A stretch of 40,829 nt of DNA from Escherichia phage P483, in sequence record NC_028822.1. One strand, given 5' to 3'. The notes beneath the pieces were generated by a model. It made no database searches, had not been told where the DNA came from, and saw nothing but the letters and a program-made list of their open reading frames with translations. The position numbers and the translations under genes were made by a program. This document shows, in pieces, positions 2,978 to 40,829 of this stretch; the first letter of the stretch is position 1, and each line of letters opens with the position of its first letter.

Positions 2978-5900
2978 TTACTTCTTGTCAGCCTTAATGT
3001 GAACACCGTTGGCCTCATAGAACTTAATGAGCATCTGTTGAGAGATTGGGTCGTTAGGAATCATCTCTCGGTGAGCATTCATTAAGCCAGTCATCATCTC
3101 ACGCTCGGTCGGTTTGTTAGGAGCCGTAAGGACACCATAAGCATTTCGACCAGTAGCTAGAGCAGCACCAGCGAAGCCAAGAGCAGGAACCTGTTCACCA
3201 ATAGCGCCCATAATGGAATCACCCATGTCACGAGAAGTCACCGCCTTATTGCGTTCACGCTTGTCATCACCTTTCGGTAGAATCGTAGAGCGAACCATAA
3301 GACCTTGGTCGTAACCAGCAGCACCCATAGCGAAGTTAGCGATACTCAGAGGCGACCCAAGGTGTGAACTTCGGGAGGCCGCTGCGTAGGCAATCATCTT
3401 CGGGTCGAGAGCTTTCTTCAAGTAATCCTTCTGTTGCTCTTTAGGAAGACCAGCAGCTTTCAAGTGAGCCTGTGCCACGTAGTAGGAACCGGCAAGACCA
3501 CCAGAGATAGCATAGGTCAGAGCCATGTCCATAGCGCGATGGTTCTTAAAGGCTTCGTTGCCAGAGCGGATAAACTTAGAGTTCATCGACTTGATGACAA
3601 ACGATTTAAACTGAAGGACTAACTTAGCGGTAGCACCAAACGCATGGGAATCCTGTAAGGAAACCTTATGAGGTCTGAGCATCGTTTCATCAGCAACCTT
3701 ATCAGCTAAACGCCATAAGTCCATAGCACGAGGGTCATTAGCCAGAGCCTTCTTATCCTTGAAGGTGAACTTACCATCTTCACCACGAGTCACGTTCTCC
3801 CGGATGAGAGACTGAATGCCTTCCCACTGTTCCTTAGAGATACTCGCCGACTTCAGCATGTCACCTTTAATCCACTTGTTGGCACCCTTACCAGTGATAG
3901 CATGAGTTACCACATCGCCCATAACACCCTGACGGGCCATGTCCAGAAGGTAGTTTGACGTACCATTGAGGAACTTGGTTAGAGGTGAGCGAGCAGCCAG
4001 TTCTTGAGTTGTGTGCTTAATGGTCCCAACAACCTTTGCTGCAACATCAGGTGTATCAGTTGACTCACGGAGTCGCTGAATGATGTCTTGACGAGTCGGT
4101 CGGATTAACTGGTCGAACTCTTTACCGAACACCATAGAGTGGAGTTCTTTGAGTTCCTTACCGGAGACTGGCTTGTTGCGGAACGCTAAGTCACGCAGTG
4201 CCGGAATGCCATGAAGCATCGCACGGATATTACCCTTCGCCAACATACCGGAGATTTCAGTTAGGTTCTGCAAGCCCATGTATGCGTTCTTCGTAAAGAA
4301 GGACATATCGGACAGAGCACGAACCATAGTGTCACCTACAGTATCCTGATTACGTCGAGCACGACCAGTGAGAATCTTAACGGTATCCTTAAGTGCTTCC
4401 ACTTCACCTTTCATTGTGCCTTTACCTTCAGACTTCTTATCAAGAGCCATGATAGCGTCCTTGAGTTCAGCAGTAGTCTTGCCTGTACCTCCCATGATAG
4501 CAATATCACCATCAACACGGCGGTCATATGCTGGCATCACATGCTTCATATCGAAGTCACGGAGGTCATTCACAGAGAACTGTTGTCCATTCGGTAGAGT
4601 GACTGGCATGTCAGAATCAAACAGGTTACGGGCTTCAAGGAATGAGTTGTTCTCAATCCCAACGAGACCCTCAATGTTATCGTCAATGACACTTGAAGAG
4701 TTGAACTCATCGGTCTTCGCAATACCATAAGCCTTGTCCATAGCGTACTTCTCAGCCATCTGACTAAGCATAGCCTCTTCGTCTACCTTTGGTTCCACCT
4801 TCTCGTCTGTGCCAAACTTCTGGCGCTCTGAAGGTTTAGCCGGAGCAGCTTGTGCACCTTTGGCAGCAGAGGCGGCTTCTTCAGCTTCGGCGGTGGCTCT
4901 GGTGATTCTGTCTTGGACCTTAGTAGCCTGTCCTTTCATGTATTCGAGACGCTCTGTGTTAACACGGACGTGAGACTTCTGGGTCTCAATCATCTGCTTC
5001 CGGCTCTCAATCTTAACAGGAATGGTTTTGCTATTAGGTTTAGCAGCTAGTTTTTCTTCCAACTCCTTCAGCTTAGCCTCATGCGAAGCCAGTCTGTCCT
5101 TGGAGTTCTGGAGTTTCCTTTCACGGTCCGCAACTCGCTTCTCAGCGTTGGTCAGGACGTCTTTTAGTTCTGCTACCTTATCACTTGCCTGTGTAGCTGC
5201 ATCGTCCAGTTTCATCTGGTAACTGGCTGTGTCGACAGACTCTTGGCTTCTGAGGAAGTTCTCAGTGTCAGCCGCAAGTTTGGCATCAGCTTCAGCTTTG
5301 GAGAAAACGTCACTGTTAACCTGTTTAAGGTATTCATCAACACGGGCCTTAACTTCAGGACGTGAATGATAGGATGTCATCCAGCTTGCAGCAATCGCTT
5401 CCTGTAAACCATCAGAACCCCCAAGAGCCTGTGAGTACAACTGCTTGGCTTCCCGTGAGTACACATGAGGAACGTAAGTCCCTTTGTGACGACTGTTAGG
5501 GAAGATAGAGTTGGCCTTGTTACCGAACATCGACGGGTTCTCCATCATCTCACGCTTGAGGTCAAAGTGTTCCTTCATGATGTCCATCACCTTACGTTCT
5601 GCCTTTGTCAAGTTGGCCTGAAGTTCAGGTCTCTCGATAGCCACAGCAGCACGACGATAGATTTCTTGACGGGCACCTTGAGCACCACTCTTGAACATAC
5701 CCACAGACCACTCAGGGTCAGCCATCGCTTCCTTCATTGCACCATAGAGGTCATTGTAGGTTCGCTGGTTGTTACTGTGTAGGCGCTCTTTGATGTCTGA
5801 GGCGGTAGCCCCAAACTTACCATGTGAGCCAGACTCCATACCTGTAGGTGAGCGCACTAAGTCCTTAGCTAGTCCACGGATTTCAGCGTGTTCAGAACGT

Positions 5901-7450
5901 AGAGTTCTCAAGCCGATTTCACTCAGGCCACGCATAGGCAATCCCCAAGCAGCACGTTCAGGGTCTACCTCGGCAAACTCTCTGGCTGTCATAGGGTTCG
6001 CTAGGTTAGTATCACTAATAATGGAACCATCACGCAGCACTACAGCACCCGGTTCAGTTTCCAGTGGTGCATACTCAACGCCGTTGTGCTGTGAGAACAC
6101 TCGGTCTTCACTAGGAGGCATACGGCTTGCGTCATAACCACCAGTGTTACGTGCAGTCTCACGAGCCTCAAAGCGCATCTGTGCAGCAGCAAAGGGGTTC
6201 TCAATCTGTTCAGCACCAGACTTACGGAGACCAGCGGCAACACCATCTGCCACAGCAGTCAGTCCACCAGCCAGTAACATCCCAGCAAGGGCAGCTTCAG
6301 CATAGTGTGCATTGCCACCTGCAACCGATGTACGCAGACCTTCAGAGGCAACGTTAAGTGCACCAGCTTGAGCACCCACCATCAATGCCTTGTTCACCAG
6401 TTTGAATCCCTTGGCTGTACTCCCTGCGAGTGGGACGTAGGTCAACGGGTCCACACCAGCACCAATCAGGCCAGCAGACAGCTTGGCACCAAGTCCAGCA
6501 TCAGCAGCCTTAGCATCAGCCTCGAAGTTCTCGTTAGCCATTTTGATTAGCTCGTCAAGGTTCTCAGCGGAACCACCGAGTACAACGTTCATGTACGCAG
6601 GGTTCTTTACTTCAGTCCGAATCTTCTCCAGTTCTTCAGGCGACCATATGTGGCTATTAAACCGTGTCGGTTGAAGTACATCAGTGAGCACATCAAAACC
6701 ATTGTCACGCTTACCAGCACGGAAGGCAACACCCAAGGTTGAGTTGGAGAGTTCTGCTTCAGCAGCACTACCGAATCCGAAGAAGGTTGAACGCTCATTG
6801 GCTTCGTCAAGAGTTGTTCCTTTTGCTTCCCAATAGTCTTTACCGAACGGCTGATTGGGAGCGGCCTGTTCTTTACCTTGAAAGGACATTGAGTGAGACT
6901 CAGGGAGTTCTGTAGTTACCTTTCCTTTCTTCCCGATACCACTCATAGCAGCATCGAACGGAATCCCTTTACCCTTTGGGGTGATACCACCGAAGGACTC
7001 AATGTCACCACTCTTAGGAGACTTAGCGACATCCAGAAGTGAGCGAAGATAGTTACGCCCTTCGTCACCGATACCAGCAAAGTTACCGGAGTCATAGGCT
7101 TCCAATTGAGGTTTACCAGTACGTCCCTCGCCTTGGTTGTACGCTAGTGCAGCTTTAAGTTCATCCCCATTGTATTTCTTAACGAGGTCTGCAAGGTAAC
7201 GAGCACCTGCATCGATTGACTTAGCCGGGTCGTTGAAGTCCTCATCAGACTGTAGGCCGTAAGCCTGACCAGTTGCCTTAGTGAACTGCATGACACCTCG
7301 TGGCCCTGTTGGTGATTGGGCCGTAGGTTTGAATCGGGACTCTACCCAACCGACCTTCCGAAGAAGGCCATAGGAGACTCCATGTGTGTCAGCAGCTTGT
7401 TGAAATAACGCATCATATTCATGCGGTTCGTTCGGGTTATACTTATCCAC
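2978..7450 (-). CDS. 16: Internal virion protein D (T7 gp16-like) with N-terminal lytic transglycosylase domain
   Basis: 1490 aa; GTG start with SD TAGGAGGT; N-terminus MDKYNPNEP...MQFTKAT and much of the body align with T7 gp16 as recalled; about 180 extra residues inserted. Confidence 0.9.
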   Translation of the reverse strand: MDKYNPNEPHEYDALFQQAADTHGVSYGLLRKVGWVESRFKPTAQSPTGPRGVMQFTKATGQAYGLQSDEDFNDPAKSIDAGARYLADLVKKYNGDELKAALAYNQGEGRTGKPQLEAYDSGNFAGIGDEGRNYLRSLLDVAKSPKSGDIESFGGITPKGKGIPFDAAMSGIGKKGKVTTELPESHSMSFQGKEQAAPNQPFGKDYWEAKGTTLDEANERSTFFGFGSAAEAELSNSTLGVAFRAGKRDNGFDVLTDVLQPTRFNSHIWSPEELEKIRTEVKNPAYMNVVLGGSAENLDELIKMANENFEADAKAADAGLGAKLSAGLIGAGVDPLTYVPLAGSTAKGFKLVNKALMVGAQAGALNVASEGLRTSVAGGNAHYAEAALAGMLLAGGLTAVADGVAAGLRKSGAEQIENPFAAAQMRFEARETARNTGGYDASRMPPSEDRVFSQHNGVEYAPLETEPGAVVLRDGSIISDTNLANPMTAREFAEVDPERAAWGLPMRGLSEIGLRTLRSEHAEIRGLAKDLVRSPTGMESGSHGKFGATASDIKERLHSNNQRTYNDLYGAMKEAMADPEWSVGMFKSGAQGARQEIYRRAAVAIERPELQANLTKAERKVMDIMKEHFDLKREMMENPSMFGNKANSIFPNSRHKGTYVPHVYSREAKQLYSQALGGSDGLQEAIAASWMTSYHSRPEVKARVDEYLKQVNSDVFSKAEADAKLAADTENFLRSQESVDTASYQMKLDDAATQASDKVAELKDVLTNAEKRVADRERKLQNSKDRLASHEAKLKELEEKLAAKPNSKTIPVKIESRKQMIETQKSHVRVNTERLEYMKGQATKVQDRITRATAEAEEAASAAKGAQAAPAKPSERQKFGTDEKVEPKVDEEAMLSQMAEKYAMDKAYGIAKTDEFNSSSVIDDNIEGLVGIENNSFLEARNLFDSDMPVTLPNGQQFSVNDLRDFDMKHVMPAYDRRVDGDIAIMGGTGKTTAELKDAIMALDKKSEGKGTMKGEVEALKDTVKILTGRARRNQDTVGDTMVRALSDMSFFTKNAYMGLQNLTEISGMLAKGNIRAMLHGIPALRDLAFRNKPVSGKELKELHSMVFGKEFDQLIRPTRQDIIQRLRESTDTPDVAAKVVGTIKHTTQELAARSPLTKFLNGTSNYLLDMARQGVMGDVVTHAITGKGANKWIKGDMLKSASISKEQWEGIQSLIRENVTRGEDGKFTFKDKKALANDPRAMDLWRLADKVADETMLRPHKVSLQDSHAFGATAKLVLQFKSFVIKSMNSKFIRSGNEAFKNHRAMDMALTYAISGGLAGSYYVAQAHLKAAGLPKEQQKDYLKKALDPKMIAYAAASRSSHLGSPLSIANFAMGAAGYDQGLMVRSTILPKGDDKRERNKAVTSRDMGDSIMGAIGEQVPALGFAGAALATGRNAYGVLTAPNKPTEREMMTGLMNAHREMIPNDPISQQMLIKFYEANGVHIKADKK

Positions 7451-28604: not shown

Positions 28605-29093
28605 TTATGATAGTGCTTCATCACGGGCGGCTATCGCCTCGTCAAGCGTTTTGTGGTAGGAAACATGCCTAGCACCATTCCTCCTGATACAGACAGTATA
28701 TAGTTCCCTGTCATTCCTCTTAGAGATGTGCTTCAATCCCAGCTTGTTGGTCGTGAATGTACCTTTGTTCTGGTTGTTAACAGCACAAGTAACCACCCTA
28801 AGATTCTCTATGAGGTTGTTACCTTTGTTTCGGTCTATGTGGTCAACTTGTAGTCCTTCAGGTATTGCACCATTTATTAGTTCCCAAATTACCCGATGGA
28901 CTCGTAGGTGATGTGCCACTCCGTTGACCCTCACACATAATACCCAATAGCCAGCCTTATTCAAGTATCCTACTGGCTTACCGTTGGGCTTGGAGAGGCC
29001 ACTAGGAGCCTCCCTGTTTACTTTAAATCTTTTCTTTAGGATTGTCCTCAGTTCCTCGGAAGCAGGAGAATGAGGGATGCCGCAATGACCCAT
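28605..29093 (-). CDS. HNH homing endonuclease with AP2-like DNA-binding domain
   Basis: 162 aa; HNH motif region VDHIDRNKGNNLIENLRVVTCAVNNQNKG and AP2-like YTVCIRRNGARHVSYHKTLDEAIAARDEA; start overlaps the last 70 nt of ligase. Confidence 0.75.
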   Translation of the reverse strand: MGHCGIPHSPASEELRTILKKRFKVNREAPSGLSKPNGKPVGYLNKAGYWVLCVRVNGVAHHLRVHRVIWELINGAIPEGLQVDHIDRNKGNNLIENLRVVTCAVNNQNKGTFTTNKLGLKHISKRNDRELYTVCIRRNGARHVSYHKTLDEAIAARDEALS

Positions 29094-35740: not shown

Positions 35741-36199
35741 TTACTGTACTTGCCAGCGGCGACCGAACTCATCAATCGTGAAGCAACCTTGAAGCGGTGC
35801 GCCTTTAGGCACTTCTTGGAAGCTACCCGGTAAACGTTCAGCTTTATAGCCGTCAATGCCTTTAGCATACACTAAGCCAGCCGTGTGAGTCTGTGACTTA
35901 TAGACCAGTACGCAGTCCTGTTCAAACTCATTACATGCCAGACGTGCGACCGCTATTGCTTGAGCTTTGTTGGCACAGCGTACACGAACAGTCAGTTCCT
36001 CAGTCGGTGCACTTGCGATAGCCTCCCGATAACAACCAGTCAAATCTGTAGACTCAACGCTACCGTATTCAAGCGGTGCATTACGCAGTGAGTTAACCAT
36101 GTGACGATGACGACTCATATTTACTTCGTCGCAGAGGTTAGAGCGGAACGCTGATACCAGTACATAGAATACGTTTGCAGGTTCGTTAGTGTAAATCAT
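35741..36199 (-). CDS. 0.3: S-adenosyl-L-methionine hydrolase/lyase (T3 gp0.3 SAMase-like anti-restriction protein)
   Basis: 152 aa; MIYTNEPANVFYVLVSAFRSNLCDEVNMSRHRHMV...GCFTIDEFGRRWQVQ is near-identical to T3 SAMase as recalled. Confidence 0.9.
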   Translation of the reverse strand: MIYTNEPANVFYVLVSAFRSNLCDEVNMSRHRHMVNSLRNAPLEYGSVESTDLTGCYREAIASAPTEELTVRVRCANKAQAIAVARLACNEFEQDCVLVYKSQTHTAGLVYAKGIDGYKAERLPGSFQEVPKGAPLQGCFTIDEFGRRWQVQ

Positions 36200-36961: not shown

Positions 36962-36979
36962 TCTCTCTCTCTCTCTCTC
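36962..36979 (-). repeat. (TC)9 / (GA)9 dinucleotide microsatellite at the phiOL transcription start
   Basis: tctctctctctctctctc read directly; the transcript would begin GAGAGAGAGAGAGAGAGA. Confidence 0.9.
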
Positions 36980-36996
36980 AATAGTGAGTCATATTA
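36974..36996 (-). promoter_or_regulatory. Phage RNAP promoter phiOL
   Basis: Minus strand reads TAATATGACTCACTATTGAGAGA. Confidence 0.75.
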
Positions 36997-37135
36997 AAGG
37001 CTATTGACTCTAAGCCATCTTTAAGGCACTATAAACACTCAGTCGATTCTACTTGTCTCTCTCATTACTCAGAGACTGCTAAACAGAGTAAGATAGTGAT
37101 TCCCCTTTGTGACGAAGCCTATTGTCACTGATAAA

Positions 37136-37210
37136 CATAAGGCACTGACTGAAGGTTAACATAAGGATAGGCATGGTCATAAGGTGATAACTCAAGGTGA
37201 TGACATAAGG
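37136..37210 (-). repeat. Four CCTTATG heptamer repeats between the predicted terminal repeat and phiOL (analogous to T7 CCTAAAG repeats)
   Basis: cataagg at 37136, 37160, 37178, 37204; three more at 37464, 37490, 37568 on the other side of the predicted end. Confidence 0.6.
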
Positions 37211-37412
37211 AGATACTCAATGGTCACTTACAGATAGGGACACAGAGACACTAAGTTATCCACAGAGTTACCAACAGTCTCACCTAAAGTTATCCACACA
37301 GCCTCTAACCTAGAGTTATCCACAGAGTTATCCATAGGTTATCCACAAGTTATCCACAAGTTATCTACAGGGTTACCCACAGGGGGGAAACCACTATGTA
37401 TGAACTATGAGA
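37190..37412 (-). repeat. Predicted terminal direct repeat with the left physical genome end at about 37412 (boundaries approximate)
   Basis: Minus strand from 37412 reads TCTCATAGTTCATACATAGTGG...CCCCCC, like the T3/T7 left end (TCTCA...) as recalled; GTGTCTCTGTGTCCCTATCTGT (37225-37250) matches the end of the T7 terminal repeat. Confidence 0.4.
37246..37381 (+). repeat. Array of eight DnaA-box-like 9-mers (five exact TTATCCACA) in the predicted terminal-repeat region
   Basis: TTATCCACA at 37246, 37290, 37316, 37339, 37350; TTATCCATA at 37328; TTATCTACA at 37361; TTACCCACA at 37373; all same orientation. Confidence 0.8.
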
Positions 37413-38091: not shown

Positions 38092-39849
38092 TTACCACTC
38101 AATGAAGCAGCTAGAATCTCCATCGTCCTCGTAGTAGATGTCCACGCCACCAACATCGTAGCTATGGATAGCATCACCACCAACGGTCTGTTTCTCCATG
38201 TGGTGTTCAAGGAACTCAAGGGTCATCTCTTCTTCACCTACACGGCTGTCCACAAGCATCCCTTCACGCAGGAACTCGATACCCAATGCGATAGCATCAA
38301 GTCGGTCATCGTGTGCCACAGCGCCTCGCTCACGGGTCATACGGGTCATCTGATAGAACGCACTGTAGCGAACATCATGTTTCCCATCAAGGTCACGAGC
38401 AGTCTGGTAGTCCTCACGGATAACCTCATCACGAATGACCAGCTTGTGCGCACCCATCAACGGTTCGATAGTATCGCAGATTCGCATCTCCTTCATGCCT
38501 TTAGCACGGATTTCCTCTAAGGCACACTTGTGATGCTTCAGGAGAATCGGAGAGAAAATCTTACCGAACATACCGTCACCGAAGTTGGACTCGTGGACTA
38601 CTGTCTGTACATTCCACTGCTTGGCCTTCTTAGCGAGCTTCTCTAGGGTAGCATCATCGTAACCACCACGGAACCCACCGACTTCCATCAAGTAGATATA
38701 ACCGTTAAGTGAGTAGAGGACTGCGTACCCGGTCTCATCCTTACCACGACCACTTGGGTCAATGACCAGAATCTTAGACTGATACTCAGCGGTACGAGAA
38801 GAGCACGTATGGAACGCATGGATGTCATCACCCTTCAGACCAACGTTAGGGAGTTCCTCATTGCGGTTCTGACGGTTCGGCAACCACTGGTAAGACAATG
38901 GGGCACGTTCAGGGTCCACAGCGCACACGATAGCGTCACGGAGTCGTAGCGGGTACTTCTCGGCATCACTAAGGTTCGGGTTAAGCATGAACTGAAGCGT
39001 GTAGCCAGCTTTGCCATATTCGAGTTCACGTTCACGGAGGTCATCCATGTCGAATCGAATAGGGTCAGTAGGTTGACCACGAAGTAACTCGAAGCCTTCA
39101 TCGTATTCAGCCTTAAGCATCGGAGCCAAGCGGTCCCCATAGTAGAGAGCCTCAGCATCATTACGTGGATACTGTGCAGGCCAGATTACCGTACTGTACC
39201 CTTTGTTATCCTCAAGTTCCTTGTAGAGCGTCATCTCGGTTTGAGGTGTGCCAAGGTAGATAACACGAGAGGTAGGCAGCGGCTTAAGTAATGCAGCGAA
39301 CTCAGTTACCAACGTCCAGAGCTTCTCACGAGCAGAACTCGTAGAGCTATTACCGGGAACCTCAACGTCATCTGCGATAATAATGTCAGCACGGCTACCA
39401 GTTAACTGACCAGTAATACCTACAGACTTCACAGAGGGTGAGTGGTCGGGTTTCGCCAAGCCAACGTCAAAGCTAATAACAGAGTCACGCTGTCCCGGTC
39501 GAGGTTTCAACTCAGAGAGGAACGGAAGGAGGTCGATGATGTTCTTAATGAAGATGGAGTTAGCGTCCGCACGTTCCTTAGAGGCAGACACGATGAGAAC
39601 CTTAAGTTGAGGGTCACGCCATAAGACCCACACGACGAACGCACAGGTGATAAAGGACTTGCCGATACCACGGAACGCCTGAAGGATAAACTTCTTGTGG
39701 TCGCCGTTAGCGAGTGTACGTGCCATATCAATCTGACACTTGGTTGGTTTAGGTAAGTTCAGAGCCTTCCATAAGACGAACAGGAAGGCCACGAAGTCAC
39801 CCTTAAGTTGCGCCACGATGAGCGCATTCTTGTTTGCTTGAGTAGACAT
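38092..39849 (-). CDS. 19: Terminase large subunit / DNA maturase B (T7 gp19-like)
   Basis: 585 aa (T7 gp19 is 586 aa); Walker-type ATPase and nuclease regions; SD TAGGAGG. Confidence 0.95.
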
Positions 39850-39864
39850 TGTGGCCTCCTATTG

Positions 39865-40422
39865 TTACTCGGCAGGTTTCTCTAAGGCAGCAATGCGCTT
39901 CTCAAGAGCCTTGATAGTGTCGGTCTTAGATACAGCCCCGTCGATGTTACTAGGTTGGAACATAACGGAAACGCTCTTCCCTTCGCTATCCACGAACTGT
40001 GTACCAAATTCACTATCAGACGCAGAAAGCGTTGCACTAACTAAGGAAGCCATACCACCTTCAGGTTCAGGGTCAGCACCAGTCCACTCTTTGTATACGT
40101 CGATTCGAACCATACCGAGTCGCTCAGTGCTTTGCTCATTCAGGAACACCGTCATGAACCCGCTACCCGGTTTAGACTCGACGGAGCCACCCCAAGTGGA
40201 CATAAGGGTCTCGAACGTAGCGTGTTGCTCAGTGGTGCCATCACTCAGTTGGATAACGTATTCAACCTTAGAGTAGCCCTCAACCTTAACCATCTCCGAA
40301 GCTGGGATGTCGATACGCCCAACACGAAGACCAATATTGTTGCGGTCGTACACATCACGACTGTCTGGTGAGCGACCATTGATGGTCCATAGTGTGCGGG
40401 TTCTTGAGTTTGTAGTAGCCAT
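39865..40422 (-). CDS. Hypothetical late protein inserted between Rz/Rz1 and terminase large subunit (no T7/T3 counterpart recognised)
   Basis: 185 aa ORF, ATG 40422 preceded by SD GAAGGAGAAG at optimal spacing; starts 3 nt after the Rz stop and ends 16 nt before the gene 19 start; no TM segment, no Cys, C-terminal amphipathic helix. Confidence 0.75.
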   Translation of the reverse strand: MATTNSRTRTLWTINGRSPDSRDVYDRNNIGLRVGRIDIPASEMVKVEGYSKVEYVIQLSDGTTEQHATFETLMSTWGGSVESKPGSGFMTVFLNEQSTERLGMVRIDVYKEWTGADPEPEGGMASLVSATLSASDSEFGTQFVDSEGKSVSVMFQPSNIDGAVSKTDTIKALEKRIAALEKPAE

Positions 40423-40424
40423 AA

Positions 40425-40829
40425 TTACTTCTCCTTCTTAGCTTGCATTTCAGTTATTGTATTTTGGAGCGCCTTAATCCACGCATCCCCTCTTTGAGTT
40501 ACTCCGATAAGACGCTTACTAAACTCTTCGTCAAGTTCGGCTCGACCATCAACGAGGCATCCACCATTAGCTTGGAGTTCTCGTGTGGTGGCTGATAGTT
40601 TGACGCGCAAGCGCTTACCATCGTTACGCAAATCATTAATGACCCTATCAGTGCTGCCCTCCAGCGCCGCAAGGTCTTCTTGGTATTGTCGTGAGATTTC
40701 GTTGATAGCAGCTTGTTTATCCTCAGTCGCCTTAACTTTCTTAACGTACTCATTGTGCACCTCCTGTTCCCATTTAGTGTTAGCTTTGTCATAGCCGTGG
40801 TTATACGCAAGGGTAACACCCAAGGCAAA
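40425..40829 (-). CDS. 18.5: i-spanin Rz (T7 gp18.5-like), 3' part; the 5' end lies beyond the window end (equivalent to 1..265)
   Basis: Continuous with the copy at the window start; resembles T7 gp18.5 as recalled. Confidence 0.8.
   Translation of the reverse strand, partial: FALGVTLAYNHGYDKANTKWEQEVHNEYVKKVKATEDKQAAINEISRQYQEDLAALEGSTDRVINDLRNDGKRLRVKLSATTRELQANGGCLVDGRAELDEEFSKRLIGVTQRGDAWIKALQNTITEMQAKKEK
40499..40753 (-). CDS. 18.7: o-spanin Rz1 (T7 gp18.7-like), embedded in Rz in the +1 frame
   Basis: ATG 40753 with SD GGAGGTG; MSTLRKLRRLRINK...LIGSLMICVTMVSACAS (lipoprotein signal and Cys) ...SLMVEPNLT resembles T7 gp18.7 as recalled. Confidence 0.8.
   Translation of the reverse strand: MSTLRKLRRLRINKLLSTKSHDNTKKTLRRWRAALIGSLMICVTMVSACASNYQPPHENSKLMVDASLMVEPNLTKSLVSVLSE
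40604..40829. repeat. 226-bp exact duplication of window positions 1-226 (circular-permutation overlap, not a biological repeat)
   Basis: Direct comparison of window start and end. Confidence 0.95.

Follow-up and report, generated by a model that had tools for sequence, protein, structure and literature searches.

The closest described counterparts of the locus analysed here are the terminal repetitions of phages T7, T3 and BA14. These have phiOR and gene 19 on one side and phiOL and the early promoters on the other, belong to a size class of 160-231 bp, carry the conserved segments TCTCAYAG...CCCCC at one end and ...GTGTCCCT with a subsequent ATCTGT at the other, and have an interior made of short direct repeats with a period of about one helical turn. 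All these traits are also found in Escherichia phage P483 (record NC_028822.1), whose sequence of 40,829 nucleotides, taken as a whole, is referred to as the window in the following. What differs is the repeated unit, which is of the CCTAAAG, CCTTATG or CTTGAGG type in the described repeats and a DnaA-box 11-mer in the window. T7-group phages replicate their DNA with phage enzymes from RNA-polymerase-primed origins, and it takes them minutes to stop transcription by the host and to degrade its DNA. To our knowledge, both replication and packaging proceed in this group without DnaA.

DnaA boxes at the ends of phage genomes have been described in T5-like phages, in which eight of them are conserved in terminal-repeat DNA that is first to enter the cell. 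For these boxes, capture by membrane-associated host DnaA has been proposed (Davison, 10.1101/866236). As in T5, the boxes of the window match the consensus, are closely spaced (the T5 pairs have a 3-bp gap) and lie in the first-entering terminal repeat, away from the phage replication origin. However, T5 has its eight boxes in pairs, set in large inverted repeats whose spacers measure 52 bp, at about 8% of the length of a repeat of about 10 kb, whereas those of the window form a direct head-to-tail array, devoid of an inverted-repeat scaffold, in a repeat of 177 bp and at 32 bp from its end. Thus, the location in the terminal repeat is common to the window and to the injection-stop architecture of T5, while the paired boxes in long inverted repeats are absent from the window; the phage family and the entry mechanism also differ.

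Bacterial and plasmid loci offer further terms of comparison. In the origin oriC of Escherichia coli (R1-tau1-R5M-tau2-I1-I2; C3-C2-I3-C1-R4), strong boxes flank or nucleate weak ones in a single orientation and at close distance, as is also seen in the window. On the other hand, oriC has two perfect boxes and the window five, and the array of the window is found without an unwinding element, IHF site or GATC and outside any DnaA-controlled replicon. No similar array is present in 5,426 complete E. coli genomes, so that a copy of host DNA is rejected as its source; matches were limited to a few small plasmids and some Acinetobacter entries. The loci datA and DARS are, similarly, clusters of boxes outside oriC that bind or titrate DnaA or change its nucleotide state, but datA requires an IHF site in addition to specific boxes, and a datA-like locus is rejected in the window by the absence of such a site within 300 bp of the array. 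Plasmid origins such as P1 oriR carry tandem DnaA boxes, along with a Rep protein gene and iterons, and neither the gene nor the iterons are present at the window array. Finally, the presence of a host factor within a packaging signal is exemplified by lambda cosB, which contains an IHF site. There, as would be the case in the window, a site for an abundant host DNA-binding protein is located beside or between the cut and recognition elements of the terminase, whereas the factor and the geometry are different and the array of the window is dispensable within its genus.

Genome context and terminal repeat

The window is a circularly permuted, Berlinvirus-like genome of the T7 group that corresponds to the IMG/VR contig 2711768803_000001. 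Its genes lie on the minus strand, and its identity to P694, nasanit, A7, BA14 and others ranges from 89 to 95% across most of its length. Positions 1-226 and 40604-40829 are identical and leave a unique unit of 40,603 bp. This 226-bp end overlap is a circular-assembly overlap in the lysis/packaging gene region, whereas the biological terminal repeat is the 177-bp segment listed in Table 1.

On the minus strand, the genome end begins with TCTCATAGTT... (first base at 37412), and the repeat terminates with ...GTGTCCCT at 37236, followed by the junction signal ATCTGT. The boundary motifs, TCTCATAG... on one side and ...GTGTCCCT on the other, agree with those of the annotated 194-bp repeat of BA14. 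In line with the T7 group as a whole, the segment is non-coding, is placed between the gene 19/phiOR side and the phiOL/early-promoter side, and has TCTCAYAG...C-run at its left boundary and ...GTGTCCCT with ATCTGT at its right one. In parallel, a homologous 177-bp segment (90.4% identity over 177/177 nt) is duplicated exactly at the two ends of the A7 record, and the direct terminal repeat of A7, also of 177 bp, was mapped via run-off sequencing of end fragments (PMC8427288). By virtue of the BA14 motifs and the A7 repeat, a location that the earlier note had only predicted, namely in a terminal repeat adjoining the left genome end, is borne out.

The array spans nt 32-157 of the repeat, i.e., 32-157 bp from the left genome end. 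The right genome end would also carry it, by duplication of the repeat, and the single copy present in the circularly collapsed assembly is in effect a concatemer junction. The conserved left-end segment is presumed to be a recognition sequence for the terminase or for maturation, and the right-end junction sequence (GTGTCTCTGTGTCCCT, CTATCTGT) is the class II pause signal of T7 RNA polymerase. The phiOR-like promoter would transcribe across the repeat in concatemers. No sigma-70 promoter was found in 37236-37412, whereas the T3 repeat has the leftward A0 promoter.

Table 1. Coordinates of the features discussed, given as positions in the window
Feature	Position	Strand	Remarks
Small terminase subunit gp18 (TerS), 89 aa	364..633	-	PF11123 / phrog_1351; gene used in the co-variation test
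Gene 0.3-like ORF	35741-36199		
phiOL-like phage-RNA-polymerase promoter TAATATGACTCACTATTGAGAG	36975..37000	-	phiOL annotation of BA14
Short-repeat array with CCTTATG-type units, flanking the repeat on the left-end side	37110..37229	-	Homologous region in BA14
Conserved right-end segment ...GTGTCTCTGTGTCCCT, then CTATCTGT	37230..37255	-	BA14 homologue annotated 'concatemeric junction'
Direct terminal repeat, 177 bp, single copy in the window	37236..37412	-	Boundary motifs and A7 homology
DnaA-box array, eight 9-mers	37256..37381	+	Reads TGTGGATAA inward from the left genome end
Exact boxes TTATCCACA	37256-64, 37290-98, 37316-24, 37339-47, 37350-58	+	
Degenerate ninth box TTACCAACA	37268-76	+	Two mismatches
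Box TTATCCATA	37328-36	+	One mismatch
Box TTATCTACA	37361-69	+	One mismatch
Box TTACCCACA	37373-81	+	One mismatch
Conserved left-end segment TCTCATAGTTCATACATAGTGGTTTCCCCCC	37382..37412	-	Common to relatives without the array
phiOR-like phage-RNA-polymerase promoter TAATACGACTCACTATTGGGAA	37983..38008	-	phiOR annotation of BA14
Large terminase subunit gp19 (TerL)	38092..39849	-	Gene used in the co-variation test

Additional features were observed around the repeat and elsewhere in the genome. Directly downstream of the phiOL-like core TATGACTCACTATTGAGAGAGAG... there is a perfect (TC)9 run at 36962-36979, (GA)9 on the coding strand, which BA14 does not have at the homologous place. In phage vB_SEqdws-315, positions 100-260, homologous to about 37110-37229 of the window, contain about five tandem copies of a unit of about 26 bp (tcaccttatgtcatcacctttgagtta), an expansion which indicates that the flanking short-repeat arrays change length by slippage. 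The nasanit record has eight 'hypothetical proteins' of 30-70 aa annotated at 3582-4787, over the non-coding concatemer junction and the array within it, and these are likely spurious gene calls. As to the protein-coding part of the window, an HNH endonuclease ORF of 162 aa located beside the ligase gene (28605-29093, minus strand; PF13392, E = 7e-18) has no counterpart in A7, nasanit, phiEap-1, NJ2, P151 and BA14, and probably represents the insertion of a mobile homing endonuclease. Between the Rz-like gene and the large terminase gene lies an ORF of 185 aa without assigned function (phrog_20446; 39865-40422, minus strand), which nasanit and BA14 also have (95% identity) and which A7, P151, NJ2 and phiEap-1 lack. 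The gp16-like internal virion protein encoded at 2978-7450 (minus strand) has 1490 aa, being longer than its counterparts in BA14, nasanit and P151 (1315 aa) and shorter than the one in A7 (1644 aa), which suggests lineage-specific insertions in the ejection protein. GATC is found at 5 sites in 40.6 kb, with about 159 expected, and its strong avoidance is a known trait of T7-group phages.

Anatomy of the array and its match to DnaA sites

The array consists of eight boxes in identical orientation, with start-to-start spacings of 34, 26, 12, 11, 11, 11 and 12 bp and with gaps of 2-3 bp between the last six; Tandem Repeats Finder places a period-11 tandem array at 37314-37381, with the consensus AGTTATCCACA. 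Recounting thus confirmed what the earlier note had reported, namely five exact and three one-mismatch copies in the same orientation, the last six being 11-12 bp apart, and located them at 37256-37381. The note had also considered this density too high for chance and had suggested a genome-wide count, and both points hold up. Indeed, TTATCCACA occurs five times in the whole window, always within the array and never outside it, whereas 0.29 copies are expected by chance, and 100 dinucleotide-preserving shuffles of the window gave a maximum of two exact copies and never attained five. The array is a real, non-chance feature. The relaxed consensus TTWTNCACA also has five sites in the 40.6-kb unit, all within the array, where about 3.9 would be expected per genome. 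The same consensus has no site outside the terminal repeat in the genomes of the window, A7, nasanit, P151 and BA14, which are five closely related genomes and hence non-independent observations. A depletion of boxes as a trait peculiar to array-bearing phages is rejected, since P151 and BA14, which have no array, are likewise at zero.

In both its 9-mer match (TTWTNCACA or R1/R4 type) and its close same-strand spacing, the array has the properties of a DnaA-box cluster. In particular, the phage unit cTGTGGATAAc(t) is the same as R1 (cTGTGGATAAc) and R4 (TGTGGATAACtctg) of the MG1655 oriC, the two natural boxes of highest affinity, flanks included, and the identity extends over 11-13 nt. The reading of the repeats as DnaA boxes, already put forward in the earlier note, is strengthened by this match as well as by the recurrence of the motif in several phage lineages. 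Boxes of the R1/R4 type bind DnaA with a KD of about 1 nM (PMC5835720), and cooperative binding of DnaA is supported where boxes follow one another closely in one orientation (PMC5716108). The commonest variant, TTACCCACA, alters a position that is not tolerated by TTWTNCACA. There is little difference between GGTAACTTATGG of BA14 and GGATAACTCTAGG, and the GGTAAC core is partly common to BA14-type repeats.

Distribution among terminal repeats and phages

The interiors of terminal repeats were compared across T7, T3, BA14, P151, Berlin and 42 further repeats obtained from an unbiased TerL-based sample. The conserved end segments are common to all of them. The interiors of the sampled repeats, by contrast with these common ends, fall into at least ten unrelated families with weak short repeats of the CCTNAGG type and a periodicity of 11-12 bp, and no DnaA box was found in the other interior families, including the repeats of T7, T3, BA14, Berlin and P151. 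Among the sampled Studiervirinae loci, the array is present in two of 80 (the window and A7) and absent from the remaining 78. It is also the most regular interior, with six copies of a 7-mer as compared with at most four in the other families and an autocorrelation of 0.5 as compared with 0.35-0.47. Thus, the array represents a rare version of a compartment of the T7-group repeat that is already known and is variable, and it is an accessory, exchangeable module. Indeed, P151 has a terminase about 98% identical to that of the window and an unrelated repeat interior. One of the options raised in the earlier note, that the array is simply the packaging-repeat family of the lineage and matches the DnaA consensus by chance, is only in part compatible with this picture. 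The position does correspond to the periodic-repeat compartment of the T7 group, but the usual family is a different one, the array being found in only two of the 80 relatives and in none of BA14, P151, Berlin, T3 and T7, and the array does not track the terminase, as the comparison with P151 indicates.

BLAST and pattern scans revealed that the same motif fills the terminal repeats of A7, nasanit and vB_SEqdws-315, which are part of the lineage of the window, and those of the Enterobacter phage NJ2 and of phiEap-1 (Eapunavirus), the latter with five exact boxes at a spacing of about 22 bp inside an exact 195-bp repeat. The box motif is also carried in the terminal repeat of the Przondovirus 175002, and it is found in the Molineuxvirinae phages Kp7, ZK1 and PmP19 of Klebsiella and Proteus, with five exact boxes in the exact 238-bp repeat of Kp7. 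Each array-bearing repeat has three to seven exact boxes with the unit cTGTGGATAAc(t/c), while the spacers vary between phages and the orientation of the boxes relative to the genome end differs among lineages. When NJ2 and phiEap-1 are aligned, 43 of 45 box positions and 66 of 89 spacer positions are identical (Fisher p = 0.0015), in an alignment for which the boxes themselves were the anchors. Metagenomic sequences provide additional examples: three Autographiviridae-like contigs have box triplets with 11-bp spacing downstream of TerL, and the 36-kb contig IMGVR_UViG_3300050343_000022 has seven exact boxes in its repeated ends. A BLAST search of the array of one metagenomic contig against isolate phages gave no classifying match. 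More generally, triple clusters of the box 9-mer are found at no fewer than 120 IMG/VR loci, as compared with 23 and 18 for two control 9-mers of the same composition, which amounts to a more than fivefold excess of box clusters over control clusters in viral contigs.

Dense clusters of DnaA boxes were also observed in many unrelated viral contigs, including contigs of 4-6 kb, which is the size of microviruses, as well as in phages of the Lactococcus 949 group and in T5-like phages, of which Sugarlandvirus is an example found in the sequence search. As for the literature, we found no description of DnaA boxes in terminal repeats of the T7-like or SP6-like type, where an older note may exist, and DnaA is nowhere mentioned in the A7 paper (PMC8427288). 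Both the terminal repeats of the T7 group and phage-borne DnaA-box clusters of the T5 type are already known.

Possible function of the array and its implications

On the basis of these comparisons, we lean, by a small measure, towards the array being a selected putative binding site for host DnaA within the variable interior of the terminal repeat. Pointing to this are the density and exactness of the boxes, the match to R1/R4, the recurrence across lineages and the higher conservation of boxes over spacers. Against selection, the motif could have drifted from the generic family of 11-12 bp repeats, given its similarity to BA14, and slippage and recombination can keep the copies within one array identical. 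As for how the site would work, DnaA in either the ATP or the ADP form would occupy the five strong boxes at nanomolar affinity, ATP-DnaA would fill the weaker neighbouring boxes cooperatively, and an oligomer of about 8-9 DnaA protomers would form on each copy of the repeat, all of which can be expected with high confidence from the biochemistry of DnaA. Entry into the cell begins with the leading end, and it is there that the oligomer would assemble first. The purpose of such a complex at the ends can be proposed only with low confidence. Our first preference is that the end-bound complex would capture or anchor the entering end or organise the two ends, working as an anchor, a ratchet, a means of end pairing or a gate. 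This is preferred because arrays are located in terminal repeats wherever the boundaries are defined and because T5-like phages place their boxes in first-entering DNA. A second preference is that the array would work as a DnaA sink after replication of the phage DNA. Whatever its role, the array would be dispensable, since the T7 group manages without DnaA and 78 of the 80 sampled loci lack it.

That the resemblance to DnaA sites is incidental appears rather unlikely, though it deserves attention. The array would then be the version of helically phased repeats that is proper to a sub-lineage, homogenised by slippage and matching DnaA sites without a selected function, and the repeats would serve the processing of concatemers and packaging, either as a spacer or as a structural element. 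Consistent with this are the periodicity of 11-12 bp and the CCTNAGG-type repeats of all ten sampled interior families, the free swapping of interiors among near-identical phages, and the rarity and dispensability of the array, together with the GGTAAC core partly common to BA14-type repeats, the boxes that gain or lose exactness between the window, A7 and nasanit, and the recurrence of the non-consensus variant TTACCCACA. However, an identical 11-mer recurs where spacers and end segments have diverged, and even in other subfamilies; the boxes of NJ2 and phiEap-1 are better conserved than the spacers, in their box-anchored alignment; and neither the copy number of the 7-mer, unmatched in the other interior families, nor the frequency of DnaA 9-mer clusters in viral contigs relative to control 9-mers is easily accommodated. 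Moreover, with five boxes of the R1/R4 type, binding of DnaA in the cell would be biochemically hard to avoid. A sink may alternatively be the primary function, in which case phage DNA would titrate host DnaA or alter its nucleotide state, and host initiation would be stopped or DnaA-regulated transcription altered, as with datA and box-carrying plasmids; we regard this as improbable. The host chromosome has 307 consensus boxes, about 200 DnaA monomers are present per origin and plasmid-borne boxes titrate DnaA in vivo (PMC5835720), and A7 has a burst size of about 100 (PMC8427288). At five top-affinity boxes per repeat, such a burst corresponds to at least 500 strong sites, and the boxes of about 100 genome copies, 5-8 in each, would outnumber both the consensus boxes of the host and its DnaA monomers per origin. 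Nonetheless, the hydrolysis of DnaA-ATP of the datA type requires an IHF site, which is missing within 300 bp of the array, blocking host initiation late would gain little given the host shut-off by T7-group phages, and a sink does not need to be in the terminal repeat, yet the arrays are there in every Autographiviridae case with defined boundaries.

A phage protein, be it the small terminase or some other protein that binds DNA, is a highly improbable ligand of the repeats, whose likeness to DnaA boxes would in this case be a coincidence. The array does sit between two conserved cut-site segments, and small terminases elsewhere bind repeated elements beside the cut site (lambda cosB, SPP1 pac). 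However, both terminase subunits, TerS and TerL, have an identity of 98% to their P151 counterparts and of 94% to those of BA14, two phages with interiors unrelated to the array, and none of the ORFs of at least 45 aa that A7, nasanit, NJ2 and phiEap-1 have in common is missing from both P151 and BA14. Recognition repeats for the terminase are rejected by this lack of co-variation, and an array-specific phage DNA-binding protein is rejected as no ORF of the window has a matching pattern of presence and absence. A host rather than a phage factor is favoured because the terminase is near-identical in phages without the array and no ORF co-occurs with it. We also find it hard to credit that the array is an auxiliary replication origin at the genome ends, dependent on DnaA in the manner of oriC or of a plasmid. 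The strong and weak boxes in the same orientation resemble the left half of the DnaA-oligomerisation region of oriC, and they read TGTGGATAA away from the terminal 31 bp, like R1 relative to the unwinding element. Yet an AT-rich unwinding element, a 13-mer, GATC and an IHF site (a match to WATCARNNNNTTR) are all lacking within 300 bp of the array, where the AT content is at most 70% over any 30 bp, and because of the missing unwinding element, IHF site and GATC this type of explanation is disfavoured; on the absence of these accessory elements, an oriC-like or plasmid-type origin is rejected. Shuffled sequence folds at least as well as the single strand (z = +1.43), and replication in the T7 group relies on the phage enzymes and RNA-polymerase-primed origins mentioned above. 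A structured RNA or DNA element was likewise discarded, on the same folding result and on Rfam matches at chance level only.

The T7 group is a textbook case of independence from host replication initiation, which makes dense DnaA sites of the top grade at its genome ends unexpected. The surprise is heightened by their recurrence in several Autographiviridae lineages and by the echo of the boxes in the first-step-transfer DNA of T5. In practical terms, the array is a ready-made, compact and putatively high-capacity titrator of DnaA, and the window phage and P151 are a natural near-isogenic pair that differs in the repeat interior, with terminases about 98% identical. Caution is also warranted in annotation, as indicated by the small proteins called across the array in the nasanit record. 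On a broader scale, and as a rather doubtful proposal, DnaA-box arrays in terminal repeats may mark an unrecognised host-factor step that is common to T7-, SP6- (Molineuxvirinae) and T5-like phages and other virulent phages, whereby DnaA captured on first-entering or terminal DNA would anchor, ratchet, pair or gate the ends. T7-like phages offer a simpler system for the unverified model that Davison proposed for T5. If DnaA is indeed captured at the genome ends, infection would be sensitive to the DnaA level or the replication state of the host.
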